Assembly (NCBI GenBank): GCA_963677485.1
Contig: OY781964.1
Span: forward strand, 1,632,001-1,696,000
Length of the DNA: 64,000 nucleotides
DNA from: Armatimonadota bacterium
GTDB lineage: Bacteria; Armatimonadota; HRBIN16
Direction: 5' to 3'
The position numbers were made by a program, and so were the translations under genes. The notes beneath the pieces were generated by a model. That model ran no database searches. It was not told the origin of the DNA and saw only the letters and a list, made by a program, of their open reading frames with translations. Below are positions 28,389 to 64,000 of the stretch, in pieces (position 1 is the first letter of the stretch; every line of letters begins with the position of its first letter).

Positions 28389-28491
28389 GGATTATCGGGC
28401 CTGGCGCGTAGCACGCATACGGAGCAGAATCCGGCGGATGGGACGGGTGCGACAGATAGTAATGGCGGGCAAACACGGCAGATCGTGGCGT

Positions 28492-28603
28492 GGGCGGGGA
28501 GACCCCGCCCCTACGGTGGCCACATCAGATCGTAGGGGCGGGGTCTCCCCGCCCTCACGTTCGTCCCGGCGATTACGAGAAGGGCGGTTCGCGAACCGCC
28601 CCT
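28492..28603. repeat. REP cluster; the last REP is interrupted by IS110
   Basis: gggcggggagaccccgcccctac / gtaggggcggggtctccccgccc doublet, then gggcggttcgcgaaccgcccct. Confidence 0.85.
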
Positions 28604-28617
28604 AGTACGCTATATAT

Positions 28618-28814
28618 GGTGAGCTCCCCGGACACCAAAAGCAGTCGGGGAGCTAATCTCACCCCTTAGCTGGGGGTGAAGGAGAAGGATTGGATGCCGG
28701 AACCGCCCCTGGTGGAAAACACCGTGACGTAGATAGGCATCCTTCTCCCAATCAACCCATATCGAACAGTATCTTGGGAGAAAACCCCGTGTTCGCTAGG
28801 CTGATTTGGTTGAT
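28618..28814 (+). ncRNA. Bridge RNA of the IS110 element
   Basis: Target loop 28681-28748 (AACCGCCCCT, GTAG) and donor loop 28751-28814 (ACAGTATCT, CTAG), each with closing stem and inner hairpin; ends approximate. Confidence 0.85.
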
Positions 28815-28849
28815 TGCACCATCAATCACTACCAACTGGAGATTACCAC

Positions 28850-30142
28850 ATGCACGAAGTTGAAGACAAAATCTACATCCATTATGTCGGGATCGACATC
28901 TCGAAATTGACGTTTGACGCGTCTGTATTAGGTTCATCGCACAAGCCGATAGACCATAAGGAGTTCAAGAACAACAAGGCCGGATACAAGGAGTTGTTGT
29001 CATGGGTGAAGAAGCTTACCCGAACTCCCGCCTTGTATGCGGCTGAAGCCACCGGGCCTTACAGCCGACCGCTGCTTGATTACCTCTACGAGCACCAGCA
29101 CGATGCTGTCCAACTGGAGCCAAAACGGGTTCTCTATCACCGCAAAGCCAAAGGCTGGGAACAAAAGACGGACTGCTCTGACAGCGTGCTAATCGCTGAC
29201 TATGTGAAAAGTCACAATGTCTCACTCTATGTCCCTCGTCTAGCATGCTATGATGCGCTTATTGGTTACACCAATGACCGCCGTATGCTGGTGCAACACA
29301 GACAGGCGATCGCCCAGCGCCAAAGCTGTCGGCTTACGCGGAGCACAGTGCTGGACGAGATGATCGCTTTTCATGACATGGGCATCAAAAAGCTTGATGT
29401 TCAGATCAAAGAGCTTGTGATGAGTTCACCGCAGATGACCGAAGATATGGCTCTGCTGAAGAGCATTCCGGGTATCGGCGACGTCACAGCAAGCTATTTC
29501 CTTGCGAAAATCGGTGATGCTAAACGATTTGAAACATCGAAAGCGGTCGCGCGCTATTTCGGAATGAACCCCTGCCCGCAACGGTCAGGAAGCTGCAAGA
29601 CATACGACGGCTCCATATCCAAGATGGGTGACCGATATATGCGGACATTACTCTACTGTGGATCGAGCACTGTGGTGAAGATGGTCAACGGTAAGTCGAA
29701 AAAGCTTGGCCAGAGCATGCACGACTTCGTGAAGGAACTGCAGCATCCGAATTTGGTAAAGAATCCCAATAAGAAACCGAAGTCCAAGCGAGTTGTCCGG
29801 TGCGCAATCATGCGCAAGCAGCTGGTGCTCATGTGGTCGGTATTAATCAGCCGTCAGCCATATGATCCAAACTTCGGCATCGAACAAGCTTCAAATGCGG
29901 CCAACCAGCAACCGCTGACCGACGCGAACGGACATGTCCAGGATCGTGCCGGAGCGGCCCATGATATAGCCGGTGTAGGCAATGATCCTGGGCTGGACGT
30001 GAGCGTTCCAAGACGGGGATGCGTGGATGGAAATCCCACCAATGAGCCCACTCCTGCCGGCGGTGGTCGGCCCGCATCCCGAAACCGGCCATCGCGCAGT
30101 CGGGTGGGCAACAAACCGAGGGTTCTGACACCAGTATCCTAG
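28850..30142 (+). CDS. IS110 recombinase (DEDD RuvC + Tnp serine domain) with long C-terminal tail
   Basis: VGIDISK, AEATG, KTDCSD, SIPGIG, PQRSGS, ISKMG; start at ATG 28850 behind GGAG. Confidence 0.93.
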   Translation: MHEVEDKIYIHYVGIDISKLTFDASVLGSSHKPIDHKEFKNNKAGYKELLSWVKKLTRTPALYAAEATGPYSRPLLDYLYEHQHDAVQLEPKRVLYHRKAKGWEQKTDCSDSVLIADYVKSHNVSLYVPRLACYDALIGYTNDRRMLVQHRQAIAQRQSCRLTRSTVLDEMIAFHDMGIKKLDVQIKELVMSSPQMTEDMALLKSIPGIGDVTASYFLAKIGDAKRFETSKAVARYFGMNPCPQRSGSCKTYDGSISKMGDRYMRTLLYCGSSTVVKMVNGKSKKLGQSMHDFVKELQHPNLVKNPNKKPKSKRVVRCAIMRKQLVLMWSVLISRQPYDPNFGIEQASNAANQQPLTDANGHVQDRAGAAHDIAGVGNDPGLDVSVPRRGCVDGNPTNEPTPAGGGRPASRNRPSRSRVGNKPRVLTPVS

Positions 30143-30413
30143 CTGCGGCAGTCTGCCGATAGCACGCATCGAAGCATAACGATATCTTTCGAAGCCACGA
30201 AGATGTCGCACGTTCGTTCGCGACTCCGAGCGTCATGTGAGGTGCTACGGACCAACTGATGCCATCTGAGCCTGTTTCTGTCGCGGATCCAGGTTTGGTC
30301 TATATGCCACAAACATCACATTAACGTTATTCTACGTGGTCTAGAGCCAGTGTCTGATATTCAGGTCCAAGTCCCCAGATTTGCCCCTGGGGACTTGACA
30401 AAAGCCACAGTAT

Positions 30414-33089
30414 CTACATTATCGTTATAGTATGCCTGCCCCTGCCCACCGGAATCAACAAAATGCCTGTATCGCCCTCGTAGCTGTTGGGCTGTTGGTA
30501 GGTATCGCCCACGGGTTTGCCGTCTACCGTGACGGACAGTGCCGACTTCACACCGGTGACCAGCACGGTGCCCTCATGCCAGAGCTCTACCGAAATCATG
30601 ACGCGGTTTGGGACCACGACTGGTCTGCCGATACGGCCTGGTGCGAACACGCTCCAGCCCCGCTCACGGATGTAGCTGTTATCGCCAATCGGGATGCCGG
30701 TATACAGCGGCGCGGCCTGACTCTGCACGGTGGCAGGGTTGATCGCCGGGGCGTTCGGTTTCTGTGGGATCAGCTCGATGGAGTCGGGCAGAAGTCCTTG
30801 CCAGTTGGGATTCACCTCGCGCTTTACTCCCTGTTGGATCGCGCTGATGGTGATTCCTCGCCAAATCTGATCCCAGGGCCCTTTGGTGTCTACCTGGGCC
30901 AGCTTGCGTACGGCATCGGCATACATCATGCCGCACCACTGCACCGGACGGCCCATCCAGTCCACCGACGTCCACTGCGTGGCTCCCCACACCGCGTTGC
31001 TGGCATACAGCCCAATCGGCCCATCCGTGGGTGGCACCAGGTAGAGGAACGGCACCCCGCTCCAGGCCCAGCGGATCGCCCGCTGCAGATACTTCTTATT
31101 GCCCGTCACCTGGTAGGCTTTCAGGTAGCACTCCACCAGTTGCCCGCTCGCCATGATATCTGGGCAATGGAGGGGCATCTCCCAGCCTGAGGCTCCGCGG
31201 GGGGCCGAGTTGTCGTAGCGGTCTAGAGCATCCGTGAGGCGAATGGCCTCGGCAAACAGCTTCGGATCACCCGTATACATCGCCTCCGTGTAGAGGTACT
31301 GCAGGGGTCGGCTTGCCAGACCGTTTGCGTGCCGCTCCCAGTGCGTGCTCGCAAGATCACGGCCTTCTGCAGGCTTGCCAAACAGACGGGTGCCGTCGGG
31401 CTCGAATGAGCGGATGTCAGCCAGCGCGGTTTCATGGGCGAGGCTGCGATTTTGGGCGATACCGCCAAAAACCAGCGTTTCGGCATAGGTGCGGATATGC
31501 CCCACAGAAGCCGCGTAGTATTCGCCCGGGTTTACTAGTTTCAGTGAACCCTCAGCGTTGTTGCGAAGCCGGCTGGCCAGACCAGCGTCCTGCACCTTGT
31601 CTGCCAGCCAGAGCTGCATCATGGTAGCATCCGCGGCGGGCTTGGTCGGCCACGGAGTTCCCGGTCCGGTGGCGTGCCGGTATTCACCCGCCTCCTGGAT
31701 GTCGGTGTCCAGCCAGCCGTGGGCCGTCAGGCGGGCATAGGACTTCAAGTCATATCCGCTGTCAGGCAACTTCGGCAGTCCGAAAAGCTGCACCCATCGC
31801 TGCATCGCGGTCAACACGTCGGGTGATTCGCCAGCCATGATCCACGCGGTGATGGTGATGGGCGTGTTCGCCTTGATCTCATCGGGCATGCGGCTGAGCA
31901 GCTCACCCGGAGGTAGTGCCTGCGGGTTGCGCTCGGTTTTGTAGAAATCGCTGACCAGCAAGCCCATCACGTGGCTTTTCGAGTTGAACTGCCGATCGGG
32001 GCTGTCGAACACCGGTTGTGTGAGGGGGCCGGGTTTCCAGGCGAGAGCGACATACTTGTTCTGGGCCTGCATCACCATCATGGGCACCGTCACGCGGATC
32101 GGGTCTGGTGTCAGCCGCTTGTAACCCGAGCTCTCGATGTCCCGCTTGCTGCTGCTGGTGTCCTTCGGGTCGAGATACTCCAAGCCGGGGAAGAGCGCCC
32201 GCTCACGCTTGGGGCTGAACAACACAAGTGCCGGCAGCAGACGCACCTTGCGGTCGCGGTCCACGCAGATGGTGGTGGTGAGCTTCAACAGCTCCTTACG
32301 GCCAGGGACTACGACGATGTTTTGCACATACTTCCAGGTGGCGCCTTCCGAGTCGGTGGTTATGCTTGTTGTACGCAGGCTTGTGGTTGAGCTGTTGAGC
32401 TGCACTTTGTCATTGAGAGACAGCAACCGATTCTGGCCCTTCTTGTCTACCCAACTGATCGCCTGCCTGTTCCAACCCTGCGCAACGGTGCTGCCGTTGA
32501 GGCTGACTCGGTAGTTTCCTATCCCAAGTTGACCCATCTCCAGCTTCATGGTCCCGCTGGACAGGCTGCGGGTCCTCTTCCAGTTACGCCAGTCGGATGG
32601 CTTCAGAGCGGGCTTGGGCAGTGGGGCCATGGGCGTCAGCCTCAGCCACTCGATCACGCACGGTTTGGTGCCTGGCGGATCGATGCGAAAGCCGGTCGTT
32701 GACGGCAGCGAGCGCACCCAGTTGCTGGCCTCCACCGTTTTCGCGGCGGGCACCACCACATGGGTGAACGTGCTCATGCTGGCCGCTTTGGTTGGGGTGA
32801 ACCAGAAGAGCCACACGGTCCCGCCCACGCTGCTTTTCAAGCGAATAGTGATTCGCACCGGCCAGCCCGCTGGGTACTTGCGCATCGGGCCCATGATGTA
32901 GGGATCTCCACCATTTGGCACCAGCAGCAGACCTTGAGGTGTGCAGGTCATTTTGCCGATGTCGTGGCTTAGCTTCCATTGCGCCGCGACCTCCGGCTTG
33001 CGGAAATCGAAAAACAGGCTGTTATCTGGTGCCGCGCAGGCCGCAAGCTGTGCGGTGAGCAGAACGGCGATGGCTAGGATGGCGCGCAT
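30414..33089 (-). CDS. Large secreted hypothetical protein, possibly carbohydrate-active
   Basis: 891-aa ORF, signal peptide, FRIDP CBM-like motif, helical C-terminal region (YQVTGNKKYLQRAIRWA). Confidence 0.65.
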   Translation of the reverse strand: MRAILAIAVLLTAQLAACAAPDNSLFFDFRKPEVAAQWKLSHDIGKMTCTPQGLLLVPNGGDPYIMGPMRKYPAGWPVRITIRLKSSVGGTVWLFWFTPTKAASMSTFTHVVVPAAKTVEASNWVRSLPSTTGFRIDPPGTKPCVIEWLRLTPMAPLPKPALKPSDWRNWKRTRSLSSGTMKLEMGQLGIGNYRVSLNGSTVAQGWNRQAISWVDKKGQNRLLSLNDKVQLNSSTTSLRTTSITTDSEGATWKYVQNIVVVPGRKELLKLTTTICVDRDRKVRLLPALVLFSPKRERALFPGLEYLDPKDTSSSKRDIESSGYKRLTPDPIRVTVPMMVMQAQNKYVALAWKPGPLTQPVFDSPDRQFNSKSHVMGLLVSDFYKTERNPQALPPGELLSRMPDEIKANTPITITAWIMAGESPDVLTAMQRWVQLFGLPKLPDSGYDLKSYARLTAHGWLDTDIQEAGEYRHATGPGTPWPTKPAADATMMQLWLADKVQDAGLASRLRNNAEGSLKLVNPGEYYAASVGHIRTYAETLVFGGIAQNRSLAHETALADIRSFEPDGTRLFGKPAEGRDLASTHWERHANGLASRPLQYLYTEAMYTGDPKLFAEAIRLTDALDRYDNSAPRGASGWEMPLHCPDIMASGQLVECYLKAYQVTGNKKYLQRAIRWAWSGVPFLYLVPPTDGPIGLYASNAVWGATQWTSVDWMGRPVQWCGMMYADAVRKLAQVDTKGPWDQIWRGITISAIQQGVKREVNPNWQGLLPDSIELIPQKPNAPAINPATVQSQAAPLYTGIPIGDNSYIRERGWSVFAPGRIGRPVVVPNRVMISVELWHEGTVLVTGVKSALSVTVDGKPVGDTYQQPNSYEGDTGILLIPVGRGRHTITIM

Positions 33090-59529: not shown

Positions 59530-60899
59530 CACTAACCCGTGTCTGTGTAACCGGGTGCGATACACCACGAGTTATGATCTCTAGCTTCTTCAGGACATAG
59601 GTTGTAAGCATGTCCATCTTACATGATTGGTTTGGACATTCCTTCAAAACAGAAATAATGGCATCTTTGATATCTTTGAGAGGGACATTCTGAACTGGTC
59701 TGCGAAGAGCAGGAACCTGGGGAGCCTCGATATTACTAGATTGTCTGTTGTCCTGCTTCTGATGTGGTAGTTGATCACTAGCACTAATCGTTGACCCCGG
59801 TTTCTGAACCGTATCTAATGTTGAATCATCATGAAAATCTTGTCGATCACCAACATCATCTGTTTGATTGTGACTTTGAGGATATATTTGCTTTTGATCT
59901 AGATAGTCTACGAGTCCTTGCACTACAGATTCTTGATTGGCATAAAATGATGATTCCGTGATTCTGTAGAACTGCCAACCACATCTTTCTAACATTCGTT
60001 GACGTTGATTGTCATCGTCAAATCGATCTGGACCATGCCATGCATCCCCATCGCATTCCACTGCTAGTCTGCACGTACCCCCCTCAACTACAAGGTCAAT
60101 ACGCTTGCCTGCAACCTCATATTGCGGTAACACAGCGTATCCGCGTGCAGCTAAAGCAACGGCGACATCAACCTCAAACCAGCTTTCAAAGGGCAGCATC
60201 GGCTTAATTTGACTCCGATTGACATTTGTAGATGATCGAAGTATTTCCTCATATTGAATACCCGCAATATTCCTGTTAACTGGTTCCATGAAGAACTTTA
60301 CCAACCGTTGGCGGTAGTCGCTATTACTTAAGTCTTCTGGCCTTACGGAGCAAAACAACCACATTTGGTCTTTGGCCCGACTAGCTGCAACGTTAAATCT
60401 TCGTTTATCTTCATCCTTAGTGAGTGCGCCTATCCGCATGTTAGATGCAGCTACCATTGATAGGAATATAACATCACGCTCATCCCCTTGAAAACTATAC
60501 GGCTTACCGCATACTATCCGTCGTTTCCTAAACTCTTGAATGCCGATCTTATCTAGAAGAAGTTTCTGTATATAGTCGGCTTGAGCATCCCCTTGTAGTG
60601 TAATCACACCCATGGTCTTATCATTATAACGGGGATCATGACATATATTAGCAATAGTATCTACAAGAGCACTGGCTTCGTTCTTATTTATAACACGGCT
60701 TTGATCACCTTCACGAAATCCGTTCTTGATATACCGCCACTCTAGTGGGCGCAACCGATTGTCGCTAATCGGGTTACACTATACCAGCCCATTCGGCATG
60801 TGTGAGCCACCCATGTTCGGCATGACTATACCACTCTAGCCGTGTTTCTTTGCCCCTGACCGCCTAAATGATAGACACAGTTTTATCAGGAGGGCATAC

Positions 60900-62459
60900 A
60901 TGGAAAGGCTAAGAATGCAGATCATAGAAGAGATCATATTCCGACTGCGGCGTGGGCAGTCCCAACGAGCGATTTCTCGTGACACGGGCTGCGCTCGTAA
61001 CACCGTCAGCCAATACGCACAGTGGGCATCTCGACTTGGATACCTGGCTCCAGATTCAGATATGCCGAGTATGGAGGCATTTCGTGACACCTTACCGCAG
61101 CGCAAACGACGCAGTAATGTGTCTAGTGCTGAACCATACCGCGAAGTCATCGAGACTTATCTCCAGGCTCACATAGAGGCAGTGACCATCCACAACAACC
61201 TAAAGCGACTATACGGGTTTACCGGTAGCTACTCTTCGGTTATTCGCTTCATTAGCGGATTGACCCCCAAAGAGCAGTTGGCCATTATACGTCTAGAGAC
61301 AGATCCAGGAAAACAGGCCCAGGTTGACTTCGGATTTGTGGGGCAAATGAAGGACCCCGCAACAGGCAAGATGCGTTCAACGTATGCCTTCTTGATGACG
61401 CTATCACACTCTCGACATCAATACGTGGAGTTTGTATTCAATCAAAGGATACCCACATGGGTGAACTGCCATATCAACGCCTTTGAATTCTTCGGAGGCG
61501 TTCCAGAGGAACTTGTGATAGACAATCTAAAGTCAGCGGTTCTCAAAGCAGATATATACGACCCTGTCATCTCGGAGCCGTATCGGCAACTGGCCTTGCA
61601 CTACGACTTCCTCATTCATCCATGTAGAGTGAGAACCCCGGAGCATAAAGGAAAAGTGGAAAACGGGGTTCATTACGTGCAGCGAAACTTCATTGCAGGC
61701 CGGGAGTTCATGGATATCGACGAAGCGAACCTGCTTGTGAAGACCTGGATCACACAAGAGGCAGGTCTGCGTAACCATGGAACCACACATAAACAGCCAT
61801 TGGCGCAGTTCAATCAGGTAGAGAAGAGCACGCTTAAGTCATTACCAGACACGGAATTTGATCTCATTGAAGTTCGTAGTGCGAAAGTCCATCGGGACTG
61901 TCATGTTACAGTGTATGGTTCTTACTATTCCGTGCCCTACAGCTACATAGGCAGCCAAATGGACGTGCATCTGCACGAACGAGTGGTGCAGATATATGAT
62001 AACGACCATAAACTAGTTGGAACACATCAAAGAGCGACACAACAAGGGCAGCGCATTACCCGCATGACTGATTACCCAACACATAAAGTGGCCTATATGG
62101 TTCTTTTAATCGAGAATTGCCTGGAATTAGGGCATGACATCGGCCCCAGTTGTGTTACGGTGCTTAATGCTTTGCTGGCTGACAGGCCTGTAGACCGAAG
62201 ACAATCCGTGAAGAGGATCGTCCGGCTAGTTCAAACGTACAGCAGTAGTCGCCTGGAAGCGGCCTGCGCACGCTCTCTCTATTACCAAGATGGTAGTTAC
62301 CAACGCATTGCTAAGATACTGAGGGCCGGTACAGATCACGAGCCAATGGGAATAACATCTTCTCTTCCCCCTAAAAAAGACTACCTCTTCGCTCGTAGTG
62401 CCGACGAATTCATTTTGGTCAGTAATGCTGACACCAATATGGAGGTAGAAGCGTGTTAA
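60900..62459 (+). CDS. istA: IS21 transposase
   Basis: N-terminal HTH, QAQVDFG, FGGVP..LVIDNLK, KGKVENGV, YYSVPY. Confidence 0.95.
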   Translation: MERLRMQIIEEIIFRLRRGQSQRAISRDTGCARNTVSQYAQWASRLGYLAPDSDMPSMEAFRDTLPQRKRRSNVSSAEPYREVIETYLQAHIEAVTIHNNLKRLYGFTGSYSSVIRFISGLTPKEQLAIIRLETDPGKQAQVDFGFVGQMKDPATGKMRSTYAFLMTLSHSRHQYVEFVFNQRIPTWVNCHINAFEFFGGVPEELVIDNLKSAVLKADIYDPVISEPYRQLALHYDFLIHPCRVRTPEHKGKVENGVHYVQRNFIAGREFMDIDEANLLVKTWITQEAGLRNHGTTHKQPLAQFNQVEKSTLKSLPDTEFDLIEVRSAKVHRDCHVTVYGSYYSVPYSYIGSQMDVHLHERVVQIYDNDHKLVGTHQRATQQGQRITRMTDYPTHKVAYMVLLIENCLELGHDIGPSCVTVLNALLADRPVDRRQSVKRIVRLVQTYSSSRLEAACARSLYYQDGSYQRIAKILRAGTDHEPMGITSSLPPKKDYLFARSADEFILVSNADTNMEVEAC

Positions 62460-63220
62460 CTCACACACTGCTACCCAAGCTCAGGCAACTCAGATGGTCT
62501 GGCATGGTTGATAGCCTCGAAGAGAGAGCGGAGCTAGCCCGTGAGCAAAAGCTCTCACCAACGGAGTTCCTTGCGTTATTAGTAGATGATGAGCTTGAGC
62601 GACGCAGCCAAACTAAACAGGTAAAGATGGAGAAGGCGGCCTGTTTCGAGAACACGAAACTGCTGTCCCACTTCGACTTCAACGCTGTACCTACCCTTGA
62701 TCGTTCGCTGGTAAGGGAGATGGCGACCTGCCAGTTAATCGCTCAACATGCCAACTGGCTGGTGTGTGGTCCCACTGGTGTGGGCAAGACACATCTAGCC
62801 ACCGCCATAGGTTATGAGGCCATTAAGCGAAGCTACAGTGTTTATAACAGTTCTGTCCACAAGTTGCAACAGGAGATGTTTGCGGCCAGGGCAGACGATG
62901 CTTATACGCGGTTGATTAAGAAATTGGTCAACGTTGACCTCCTGATACTCGACGACTTTGGTCTTCGCCCCATCACAATTCAGGGAGCGGAAGACCTCTA
63001 CGAGATCATCCACCAGAGATACGAGAAGGGCAGTATTGTATTGACATCTAATCGGGCTCCCTCCGAATGGCCGGAGATGTTTGGCGACTCTCTTCTCGCT
63101 TCAGCTGCTATGGACAGATTGACTCACCATGCCCGGGTGACTGTTGTCACCGGTGAGAGCTATCGCCAAAGGCAGCGCAGAGGGGAGGTAAGCAAGCCGG
63201 ATAATGCATCCGTAGAGTGA
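62453..63220 (+). CDS. istB: IS21 ATPase helper
   Basis: GPTGVGKTHLA, LLILDDFG, TSNR, AAMDRLTHH. Confidence 0.96.
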   Translation: MLTHTLLPKLRQLRWSGMVDSLEERAELAREQKLSPTEFLALLVDDELERRSQTKQVKMEKAACFENTKLLSHFDFNAVPTLDRSLVREMATCQLIAQHANWLVCGPTGVGKTHLATAIGYEAIKRSYSVYNSSVHKLQQEMFAARADDAYTRLIKKLVNVDLLILDDFGLRPITIQGAEDLYEIIHQRYEKGSIVLTSNRAPSEWPEMFGDSLLASAAMDRLTHHARVTVVTGESYRQRQRRGEVSKPDNASVE

Positions 63221-64000
63221 GATACCGACGCATCCAACACTTACATTGGGCAATGAACACGAACTAGTCAAGTGGTATACATATGCCGAACATGGGTGGT
63301 AGTAATAAGGTGACTATTGACACCGATCAGGGGGATATTGTCGTAATGGGACCAAAGGAGAACTCGAATAACACATTTCATTGCTGAACCGGATGATTTC
63401 AGGCATGCACCTGAAGTGTTCGCGTAAGGAGACCTTGCTACTACCGTATCGAAGTCTACCGTGGTCAAAAAGACTGCTGTGTAGATCAAATGCAATAGTA
63501 TGTTGAAATCCTGACAATCGTTCACGTTGCATTAGGAAAACTTTGTCTTCGTTAATCCCGACGACCTCAGGGCTGATTTGCTGGTCATCTCCAACAATGA
63601 TGATCTTCTTAGCCAGATAAAACAAAGGAAGTGCCTCAATACTACACTGCGAGGCTTCGTCTATAATGATGACATCGAACATCCCTTGTCGTGGAGTGAT
63701 CGTGTCCCAAATCCTGTGGAGTGGCATGATCCACCCTGGAACGGCCTCGTTGCATTCGCTAAGATGCGTCTGGGCTTCACGACGGTATCGCCATGCTTGT
63801 TTCCCAGTAGCTTTCCCTAGCCTCTTCATCGCAAGCTGCCATGAGGTCATGTGTTCTTTGTGTTCGACGGCAAGACGAGAGAAACAGAACGACCAAGCAT
63901 GAAGAGACGCGAGTTCTGCAATGATCTTTTTAATCTCATCTTCGACTTGAATTGTTCTGACGGTAAGGGTTTCGTAGCCCGATTGATTGGAAAAAGAACG

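Follow-up and report, generated by a model that had tools for sequence, protein, structure and literature searches.

Within the 64-kb window, that is, the whole stretch of DNA that was analysed, an insertion sequence of the IS110 family, named IS-A, lay just 3' of a REP-like palindrome and consisted of a left non-coding end, a recombinase gene and a right non-coding end (Table 1). The ends of IS-A were identical in all 12 genomic copies, and the variation among these copies amounted to six single positions and one frameshifting 16-bp deletion carried by two of them, while the full 430-aa frame was retained in 10 of the 12. The core CT flanked every copy on both sides with no other duplication, and excising 28604-30415 in silico rebuilt ...CCC-CT-AC. 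An earlier note on this DNA, drawn up from the letters alone, had claimed that removal of this interval restores the REP followed by CT and AC; this was borne out, and every coordinate and string given there was present in the sequence. Five public sequencing runs contained 0.91-0.96 of the sampled words of the stretch, and in four of them, all kept as contigs, no joint of a circle junction or an empty site was listed, a result that is uninformative either way because contigs drop rare forms. In the sister genome G001, the two genes that flank IS-A were widely separated (2.49 Mb vs 0.46 Mb), which precluded an empty-site comparison.

Table 1. Features of IS-A and its insertion site, in positions of the window
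Feature	Position	Strand	Remark
REP-like palindrome GGGCGGTTCGCGAACCGCCC	28582..28601	+	3' arm is the left target; 10/12 IS copies abut the palindrome
CT core dinucleotide, left copy (target side)	28602..28603	+	CT precedes 12/12 copies
Whole IS110-family element (IS-A)	28604..30415	+	1,812 bp; 12 full-length genomic copies, 99-100% identity
Left non-coding end, encoding the predicted bridge RNA	28604..28849	+	246 nt; identical across 12/12 copies
TACGCT, -10 half of predicted promoter	28606..28611	+	Promoter formed only on the circle junction
5' stem-loops of predicted bridge RNA	28616..28679	+	Single fold; compensatory pairs
Target-binding loop (loop 1) with closing stem	28681..28748	+	Stems 28681-28689 and 28692-28698, pairing with 28736-28748
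Putative left target guide GAACCGCCCCT	28700..28710	+	Left flank plus CT core; all 11 nt match the flank in 6/12 copies
Putative right target guide GTAG, then handshake bases AT	28729..28734	+	GTAG is the reverse complement of CTAC
Donor-binding loop (loop 2) with closing stem	28751..28814	+	Stems 28751-28757 and 28808-28814
Putative left donor guide ACAGTATCT	28766..28774	+	Right end plus core
Putative right donor guide CTAG (28796-28799), then handshake base G	28796..28800	+	Covaries with the start of the left end
Recombinase gene	28850..30142	+	430 aa; GGAG 8 nt upstream of ATG
Candidate conserved long RNA hairpin in 3' extension of the ORF	29901..30030	+	130 nt
Right non-coding end	30143..30415	+	273 nt
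TTGACA, -35 half of predicted circle-junction promoter	30395..30400	+	
Left donor ACAGTAT and right copy of CT core	30407..30415	+	Element end ...ACAGTATCT
Right target AC	30416..30417	+	AC in 11/12 copies, AT in 1

The recombinase comprised an N-terminal DEDD (RuvC-like) domain and a C-terminal Tnp domain, with matches above the curated cut-offs to PF01548 (residues 13-158, E 1.8e-21) and PF02371 (residues 201-285, E 4.4e-22). Among solved structures, the IS621 transposase (8wt6, E 2.5e-28) was its best relative, ahead of that of ISCro4 (PDB 9t56, E 5e-26), for which the comparison concerns the protein only. The catalytic residues D16, E66, D108, D111 and S246 aligned with D11, E60, D102, D105 and S241 of IS621, and these five positions were invariant in all eight aligned proteins of the clade.

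Folding of the left end revealed both large internal loops proposed in the earlier note (-88 kcal/mol, z = -3.2; none of 200 shuffles reached this stability). A consensus fold of five left ends, four of which were mutually close, contained 81 pairs, including 14 with a compensatory change. Loop 1 carried AACCGCCCCT at 28701-28710 and GTAG at 28729-28732, and the identities that had been described between loop 1 and the target, and between loop 2 and the element ends, proved exact and correctly placed. AACCGCCCCT occurred exactly twice in the 64-kb window, in the flank and in the loop (shuffle mean 0.10; 0 of 100 shuffles reached two), and ACAGTATCT likewise occurred exactly twice, in the right end and in the loop (shuffle mean 0.32; 4 of 100). 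The strand sense agreed with the rule published for IS621, in which the left target guide equals the top strand, and therefore pairs with the bottom strand, and the right target guide is the reverse complement of the top strand. This rule and the definition of handshake guides follow the available text of the published IS621 work, according to which the same loop positions were shown experimentally to act as guides. A scan of 28604-28849 against Rfam 15 returned no family at E <= 1; weak matches to mir-185, isrG and tfoR (E 0.016-0.59) lay on the neighbouring palindrome at 28474-28566, far under the gathering scores, and were dismissed as chance.

The short palindrome at the insertion site was repeated many times in the genome, as expected of a REP target: the pattern GGGCGNTTNNNNAANCGCCC was found at 44 sites genome-wide, and a 25-27-nt part of the repeat was present in the sister genome in at least 25 exact copies. 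Each of the 12 copies of IS-A was bordered by ...CCCCT at its left end and by A at its right end, with AC in 11, so that the shared target site anticipated in the earlier note was found throughout. When sites carrying CTAC were sorted by their mismatches to the nine non-core guide bases, six were filled and one was empty at zero mismatches, 3 were filled and 27 empty at one, none was filled and 61 were empty at two, and 1 was filled and 506 were empty at three. Two of the 12 insertions occupied different palindromes, where 3 and 5 of the nine bases departed from the guide, and these poorly matching sites indicate either some tolerance of mismatches or a further determinant, such as a DNA hairpin, that acts alongside the guide. 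Ten of the 12 sites are instances of the same palindromic repeat and hence do not count as independent support for guide positions further out than about -8. With 12 copies and an occupancy that tracks the guide match almost site by site, IS-A offers a clean natural illustration of bridge-RNA targeting, and such sets of elements are useful for learning how far mismatches are tolerated in nature and for selecting orthologues to be used in genome editing. Three Y1_Tnp loci were also present in the genome.

Covariation between guides and flanks was followed across five elements with 25 insertion sites, consisting of IS-A and four relatives: a second element in the same genome (IS-B), one in the sister genome and two on metagenome contigs. 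The loop-1 guides of the five were GGAACCGCCCCT, GTCGCGCCCCT, GGGTCATCCCT, GTGTGGCCCCT and GTCGTGCCCCT, and each fitted the flanks of its own element best, with 8.0, 6.5, 8.44, 7 and 7 matches of 9, against 3.0-6.5 of 9 on the flanks of the other elements; the single tie was the L038 guide, which reached 6.5 on the sites of IS-B. The second, diverged element in the same genome carried a different guide, and the third element, in the sister genome, aimed at a different repeat; both add to the natural illustration of bridge-RNA targeting. In the donor loop, a right donor guide CTAG accompanied a left end starting with AG, and CAAG accompanied one starting with TG, in all five elements. The left donor guides ACAGTATCA and ACAGTAACA of related elements paired incompletely with ...ACAGTATCT, and the same mismatch is present in IS621. 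Handshake guides had been proposed in the earlier note from extensions of both right guides; their first bases were able to pair in all five elements, the A that follows GTAG with the final T of the left donor and the G that follows the right donor guide with the final C of the left target, but the second base fitted only in loop 1 of IS-A. At the level of sequence, this natural covariation in four related elements supports a guide function for the loops. Five proteins (P0001-P0005) showed 61-95% identity, but no DNA encoding them was found; a scan of metagenomes returned only a group at 41-43% identity and more distant loci, and a search of genome contigs with a single protein found no close relatives.

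The two ends of IS-A also contained the halves of a predicted promoter, TTGACA-17-TACGCT, that would be assembled only when they are joined. Its geometry, with the -35 element at offset -21, a 17-nt spacer and the -10 element at position 3 of the left end, was identical in six of six elements including IS621. By analogy with the IS621 work, IS-A would be excised as a circle in which the right end is joined to the left end across one CT, and the junction would form a sigma-70 promoter to which the right end contributes TTGACA and the left end TACGCT. From this promoter, the left end would be transcribed to yield a bridge RNA that carries 5' stem-loops as well as two internal loops and that the recombinase would bind. 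Loop 1 would pair with the target, GTAG contacting CTAC of the top strand. Loop 2 would pair with the circle junction, where ACAGTATCT would contact the right-end half and CTAG the left-end half. The DEDD/Ser recombinase, with Ser246 as the predicted nucleophile, would then cut after CT and exchange strands, aided by the handshake bases, the A that follows GTAG and the G that follows CTAG, leaving the element immediately 3' of the palindrome and flanked by CT at either end. The guides would presumably be programmable, as in IS621. Taken together, the Pfam domains, the catalytic residues, the guides, the shared site of 12 of 12 copies, the covariation and the IS621-like layout support the earlier reading of a complete IS110 bridge-recombinase system, and we consider it very probable that 28604-30415 is an intact IS621-type insertion sequence that follows the proposed cycle.

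The target might instead be chosen by the protein alone or through recognition of the repeat as a DNA hairpin, with the loop-flank identities arising as by-products, for example as carried pieces of the target. Every site examined was on the 3' arm of a palindrome, two of the 12 match the guide poorly, and for ISPpu10, according to a 2026 preprint, RNA pairing does not suffice and a DNA stem-loop at the target is needed as well. This explanation nevertheless appears highly improbable, given that the guides of five elements differ and each fits the flanks of its own element, that the right donor guide covaries with the first bases of the element, and that a single guide mismatch within the same repeat family reduces occupancy from 6 of 7 to 3 of 30 sites. 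Both identities, moreover, lie in unpaired loops of a conserved fold, at the positions with an experimentally assigned guide role in the accessible IS621 text. The frameshifting deletion in two copies could also mean that IS-A is a fossil whose copies spread in the past and which is now immobile. We regard this as improbable: the full reading frame persists in 10 copies, the 12 copies differ only by the few changes described above, and their bridge-RNA region is identical. In addition, the deleted form occupies two different perfect targets and must therefore have moved or been copied after the deletion arose. The preferred reading is an intact, recently active RNA-guided element.

The reading frame of this clade extended about 85 codons past the usual end, over the 130-nt hairpin at 29901-30030. 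Between IS-A and IS-B, identity in this region was 0.77, 0.70 and 0.77 at the three codon positions, compared with 0.11-0.53 at the third position elsewhere; within the B group codon position 2 was the least conserved, and the conservation ran beyond the B-group stop codons. The fold contained 47 pairs, of which 6 were compensatory and 3 were invariant G-U pairs; 94.9% of its cells were paired, and the z-score was -3.62 on the plus strand and -1.08 on the minus strand. A functional C-terminal protein tail could account for the conservation without any RNA structure, since the frame is open across the hairpin in five of five DNA sequences and eight of eight clade proteins, several residues there are invariant, and the IS-A group adds an Arg-rich tail. 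Such a tail seems unlikely in view of the equal identity at the three codon positions, the conservation past the stop codons, the compensatory and G-U pairs, and the plus-strand z-score; AlphaFold2 also placed residues 342-430 below a pLDDT of 35 with no secondary structure, in a prediction from an alignment of only eight sequences. An antisense ORF (29847-30236, 129 aa) was considered as the source of the codon-position pattern, all three reverse frames being open there, and was dropped because the G-U pairs and z-scores point to an RNA from the plus strand. Nor is gene conversion between IS-A and IS-B a likely cause of the high identity, because IS-A is equally similar in this region to IS-C from another genome.

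We therefore put forward, tentatively, that the clade (IS-A, IS-B, IS-C and a few metagenome relatives) possesses a third conserved RNA part, a cis-acting hairpin within a disordered 85-codon ORF extension, which might, for instance, guide the processing of the element's own transcript, affect its stability or bind the recombinase, and so tune the amount of recombinase or bridge RNA. If so, it would represent a regulatory layer undescribed for IS621-type systems, and hairpin and extension together may be a sign of a regulatory element that has escaped notice in a subclade. A model search (R1) did not find the hairpin in 98 more distant IS110-family loci other than the IS621 locus L161, and a narrow literature search on IS110 and bridge RNA returned no relevant match for such a hairpin or C-terminal extension. 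Pairing of the hairpin with the bridge RNA was equalled by 19 of 200 shuffles, and pairing with the ribosome-binding region by 3 of 200; the method permits huge loops, and no conclusion was drawn from either comparison.

For comparison with IS621, we used an E. coli copy (L161:298-1576) reached by a protein search of plasmids; at the DNA level, the whole of IS-B had no match in E. coli genomes. The two systems were alike in their domains and catalytic residues, in an RNA encoded in the left end with the target loop preceding the donor loop, in the CT core, the right target AC and an identical right end ...ACAGTATCT, and in GTAGAT after the loop-1 hairpin, and the E. coli copy displayed the landmarks ATGCCG-guide-hairpin-GTAGAT and ACAGTATCA...CAAGG. 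They also shared the junction promoter geometry and, as far as the available IS621 text describes it, insertion at the 3' side of REP palindromes. In contrast, the target is GAACCGCCC-CT-AC for IS-A and ATCAGGC-CT-AC for IS621, in line with the earlier description of an ortholog with a different target; the claim of a distant lineage held only in the sense that the proteins are 28-30% identical. The left end of IS-A starts with AG and has the guide CTAG, whereas that of IS621 starts with TG and has CAAG. IS-A is also longer in every part: 1,812 vs 1,279 bp for the element, 246 nt, with an extra small 5' stem-loop, vs 191 for the left end, 273 vs 107 nt for the right end and 430 vs 326 aa for the ORF. 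In the accessible text of Durrant et al. 2024, 5,511 ncRNA-target pairs of the IS110 family were analysed and IS621 was described as targeting REP elements. IS-A is an ordinary member of the family described in 2024 and leaves knowledge of that family unchanged, and it or its clade may be among the orthologues in the supplements of that study. According to the descriptions available, ISPpu10 and ISPpu9 of Pseudomonas putida resemble IS-A in being multi-copy, confined to one conserved palindromic intergenic repeat and inserted beside a DNA stem-loop, but the ISPpu10 RNA reportedly lacks a 5' stem-loop, which the IS-A RNA keeps.

Elements of the IS1111 group, with their seekRNA, belong to the same protein family and follow the same RNA-guided logic, and their guide RNA lies downstream of the ORF. 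In IS-A, by contrast, both guide loops lie upstream of the ORF, and the downstream hairpin has no large internal loops.

The observation in the earlier note, which read an IS110-family bridge-recombinase system aimed at a REP repeat from 28581-30420, is confirmed, and the strings and positions reported there agree exactly with the sequence. The element, IS-A, is a 1,812-bp block that starts with AGTACGC and ends in ACAGTATCT, lying between the CT core that follows the palindrome GGGCGGTTCGCGAACCGCCC and an AC dinucleotide. Its left end of 246 nt folds at a predicted -88 kcal/mol (z = -3.2; equal stability in 0 of 200 shuffles), with two internal loops, target-binding loop 1 and donor-binding loop 2, both open in the predicted fold. 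Both left guides occur exactly twice in the 64-kb window, AACCGCCCCT against a shuffle mean of 0.10 (two or more matches in 0 of 100 shuffles) and ACAGTATCT against a mean of 0.32 (two matches in 4 of 100).

Features of the IS-A locus and its surroundings, in window coordinates
Feature	Position	Remark
Second palindromic-repeat type	28492-28555	arranged as inverted pair
GACCCCGCCCCTAC	28503-28516	unfilled; occupied site 90 bp away
Target palindrome GGGCGGTTCGCGAACCGCCC	28582-28601
CT core	28602-28603
IS-A	28604-30415	1,812 bp
Loop-1 left guide AACCGCCCCT	28701-28710	internal loop of left end
Loop-1 right guide GTAG	28729-28732	same internal loop
Loop-2 left guide ACAGTATCT	28766-28774	second internal loop of left end
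Loop-2 right guide CTAG	28796-28799	same loop as ACAGTATCT guide
Recombinase ORF	28850-30142	430 aa
16-bp deletion of two copies	29288-29303	frameshifting
Candidate RNA hairpin	29901-30030	130 nt, plus strand
Highest conservation with relatives	29906-30035	identity 0.66-0.78
Small conserved right-end hairpin and motifs	30180-30210; 30320-30345	ATCTTT...AAAGAT; recurrent AACGTTAT
Outward-facing promoter-like site	30395-30422	integrated state
Downstream AC	30416-30417
IS21-family element	60760-63322	2,563 bp

The recombinase carries DEDD_Tnp_IS110 and Transposase_20 domains, and among proteins of solved structure it is closest to the IS621 transposase (8wt6, E 2.5e-28), followed by ISCro4 (9t56). 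The catalytic residues of IS621 named in the structural paper (D11, E60, D102, D105, and S241) align with D16, E66, D108, D111, and S246 of IS-A, which are invariant in all eight clade proteins. As the IS621 reference we used an E. coli plasmid copy annotated 'IS110-like element IS621 family transposase' (1,279 bp; left end 191 nt, right end 107 nt), which agrees in left-end length and in the 298-bp total of right plus left end with Durrant et al. 2024. This copy is bordered by TTATCAGGC-CT followed by TGTATT on the left, and its right end closes with ACAGTATCT before ACG; its loops, TATCGGGCCT ... GTAGAT and ACAGTATCA ... CAAGG, repeat the landmarks of IS-A in unchanged order. The strand rules are likewise those of the published IS621 account, with left guides pairing with the bottom strand, right guides with the top strand, and the core contained within each. 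The proposal that extended right guides would act as handshake guides also held, the single base after GTAG and the single base after the right donor guide behaving like the handshake guides of Hiraizumi et al. In six of six elements, the best predicted junction promoter places its -35 box at offset -21 and, after a 17-nt spacer, its -10 box from left-end position 3, reading TTGACA/TACGCT in IS-A versus TTGCAG/TATTAT in IS621.

The genome, a single 5.22-Mb contig, holds 12 full IS-A copies at 99-100% identity, which differ at six single positions and by a 16-bp frameshifting deletion common to two copies, with no differences in the bridge-RNA region of any copy. On whether the other copies occupy the same kind of site, CCCCT lies upstream and A downstream of all 12, the dinucleotide being AC in 11 and AT in one. 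The left flank carries the full 11-nt GAACCGCCCCT in six copies and a one-position change in four (AATCG in three, AAACG in one), and the remaining two are inserted in other palindromes. We removed the copies in silico, sought N9-CTAC sites, and counted mismatches over the nine non-core guide bases, a scan that leaves out the copy with AT for AC and another with five mismatches. Perfect sites were occupied in six cases and empty in one, those with one mismatch in three and 27, those with two in none and 61, and those with three in one and 506. The palindrome family targeted by IS-A comprises 44 genomic sites.

The two deletion-bearing copies (G000:C1:1369196-1370991 and 1871159-1872954) sit at two different perfect targets; this pattern means either that intact copies mobilized the defective form in trans or that gene conversion carried the deletion from copy to copy. 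A site identical to the GACCCCGCCCCTAC within the second repeat type is filled elsewhere by another IS-A copy, the genome contains 228 occurrences of CGCCCCTAC, and the weak Rfam matches of the region fall on the same palindromic repeat.

Related elements allowed guides and targets to be compared. IS-B, in the same genome, is approximately 70% identical to IS-A in patches of nucleotide sequence and 45% identical in protein, and is present in two copies, one of them interrupted by an IS21-family element; IS-C has nine copies in the sister genome G001, and two metagenome contigs carry further variants, L037 and L038. The loop-1 guides of the five elements differ, and each scores best on its own left flank, with one tie, that of the L038 guide on IS-B sites (6.5).

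Loop-1 guides and left flanks, scored as identical positions out of nine
Element	Loop-1 guide	Own flanks	Other elements' flanks
IS-A	GGAACCGCCCCT	8.0	4.22-5.5
IS-B	GTCGCGCCCCT	6.5	4.11-6.0
IS-C	GGGTCATCCCT	8.44	3.0-6.0
L037	GTGTGGCCCCT	7	4.5-5.08
L038	GTCGTGCCCCT	7	3.11-6.5

IS-C inserts behind another palindrome, GGATGACCACAAGGGTCATCC-CT, which is exact at five of its nine sites and altered at one or two positions at three, the ninth lacking the palindrome and being followed by AT. Across the 25 insertion sites of the five elements, CT lies upstream of all and AC downstream of 23. Left-end start and loop-2 right guide are AG and CTAG in IS-A and TG and CAAG in the other four, and the left-end stems show compensatory change at 14 of 81 consensus pairs. 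G001 carries at least 25 exact matches to a 25-27-nt part of the IS-A target repeat, CCCCTA included, but no IS-A was found there.

The analysis of IS-A shows its anatomy and site specificity, occupancy that depends on the guides, and covariation. The IS621-type bridge-RNA reading of the earlier note is supported; the literature already describes this family, its RNA architecture, the targeting of REPs, and the junction promoter. The cycle proposed for IS-A is modelled on the IS621 work, and we infer by analogy how its transcription, circle, binding, and chemistry would proceed. All targets seen fall within the 3' arms of DNA palindromes, and a 2026 preprint on ISPpu10 reports a target DNA hairpin as required there; a requirement of this type could explain the two poorly matching IS-A sites, which are also palindromes.

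Nucleotide conservation between IS-A and its relatives of the B group peaks neither in the catalytic core nor in the bridge RNA, instead falling late in the ORF, where identity is equal across codon positions (0.77, 0.70, and 0.77; third positions elsewhere 0.11-0.53) and extends beyond the B-group stop codons. The plus strand is predicted to form one long hairpin (z = -3.62; 0 of 200 shuffles equally stable), versus z = -1.08 for the minus strand. In an alignment of five sequences, its 47 pairs were 94.9% paired (slid controls 23-37%), six pairs had both partners altered, where shuffles averaged 1.5 (six reached in 0 of 500 shuffles), and three G-U pairs were invariant. Matches to the hairpin model were confined to elements of the clade, with 14 in the IS-A genome and nine in G001; 59 other relatives gave none, and 98 more distant IS110 loci gave one chance-level match (E 0.7). 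Distant family proteins span 272-375 aa and cover approximately 77% of the query, one example stopping a few residues past the PYD motif, and the IS-A frame is approximately 85 codons longer; AlphaFold2 modelled residues 342-430 at pLDDT below 35 without secondary structure (8-sequence alignment; mean pLDDT 59.9). The stretch tentatively reads as a clade-specific structured RNA element of the sense transcript through which the ORF continues, a suggestion drawn from two divergent groups in which four of the five sequences are mutually close. The hairpin and the ORF extension are the sole features for which a narrow literature search of main texts found no description.

In the integrated state, the TTGACA of IS-A and the flanking CATTAT form a promoter-like site, in which 10 of 12 bases match and the spacer is 16 nt long, directed antisense into the neighbouring gene, in a promoter scan whose overall yield was no higher than that of shuffles. 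On the metagenome contig L040:1-1046, a B-group recombinase gene has unrelated sequence in place of the initial 231 nt of its left end, bridge RNA included. The IS21-family element encodes a rve/Mu-transposase-C protein and IstB and is present in nine copies, of which G000:C1:2668304-2670866 splits the second IS-B copy with a 6-bp duplication at its borders. The genome also holds four more IS110-family loci of other lineages (G000:C1:138550-138987, 1100948-1101385, 3874741-3875178, and 2574553-2575029) and three Y1_Tnp loci, whose transposases could be of the REP-associated or the IS200 type. In the right end of IS-A, the small conserved hairpin and the recurrent motifs are held in common with related elements, and one more hairpin lies immediately upstream of the -35 box.
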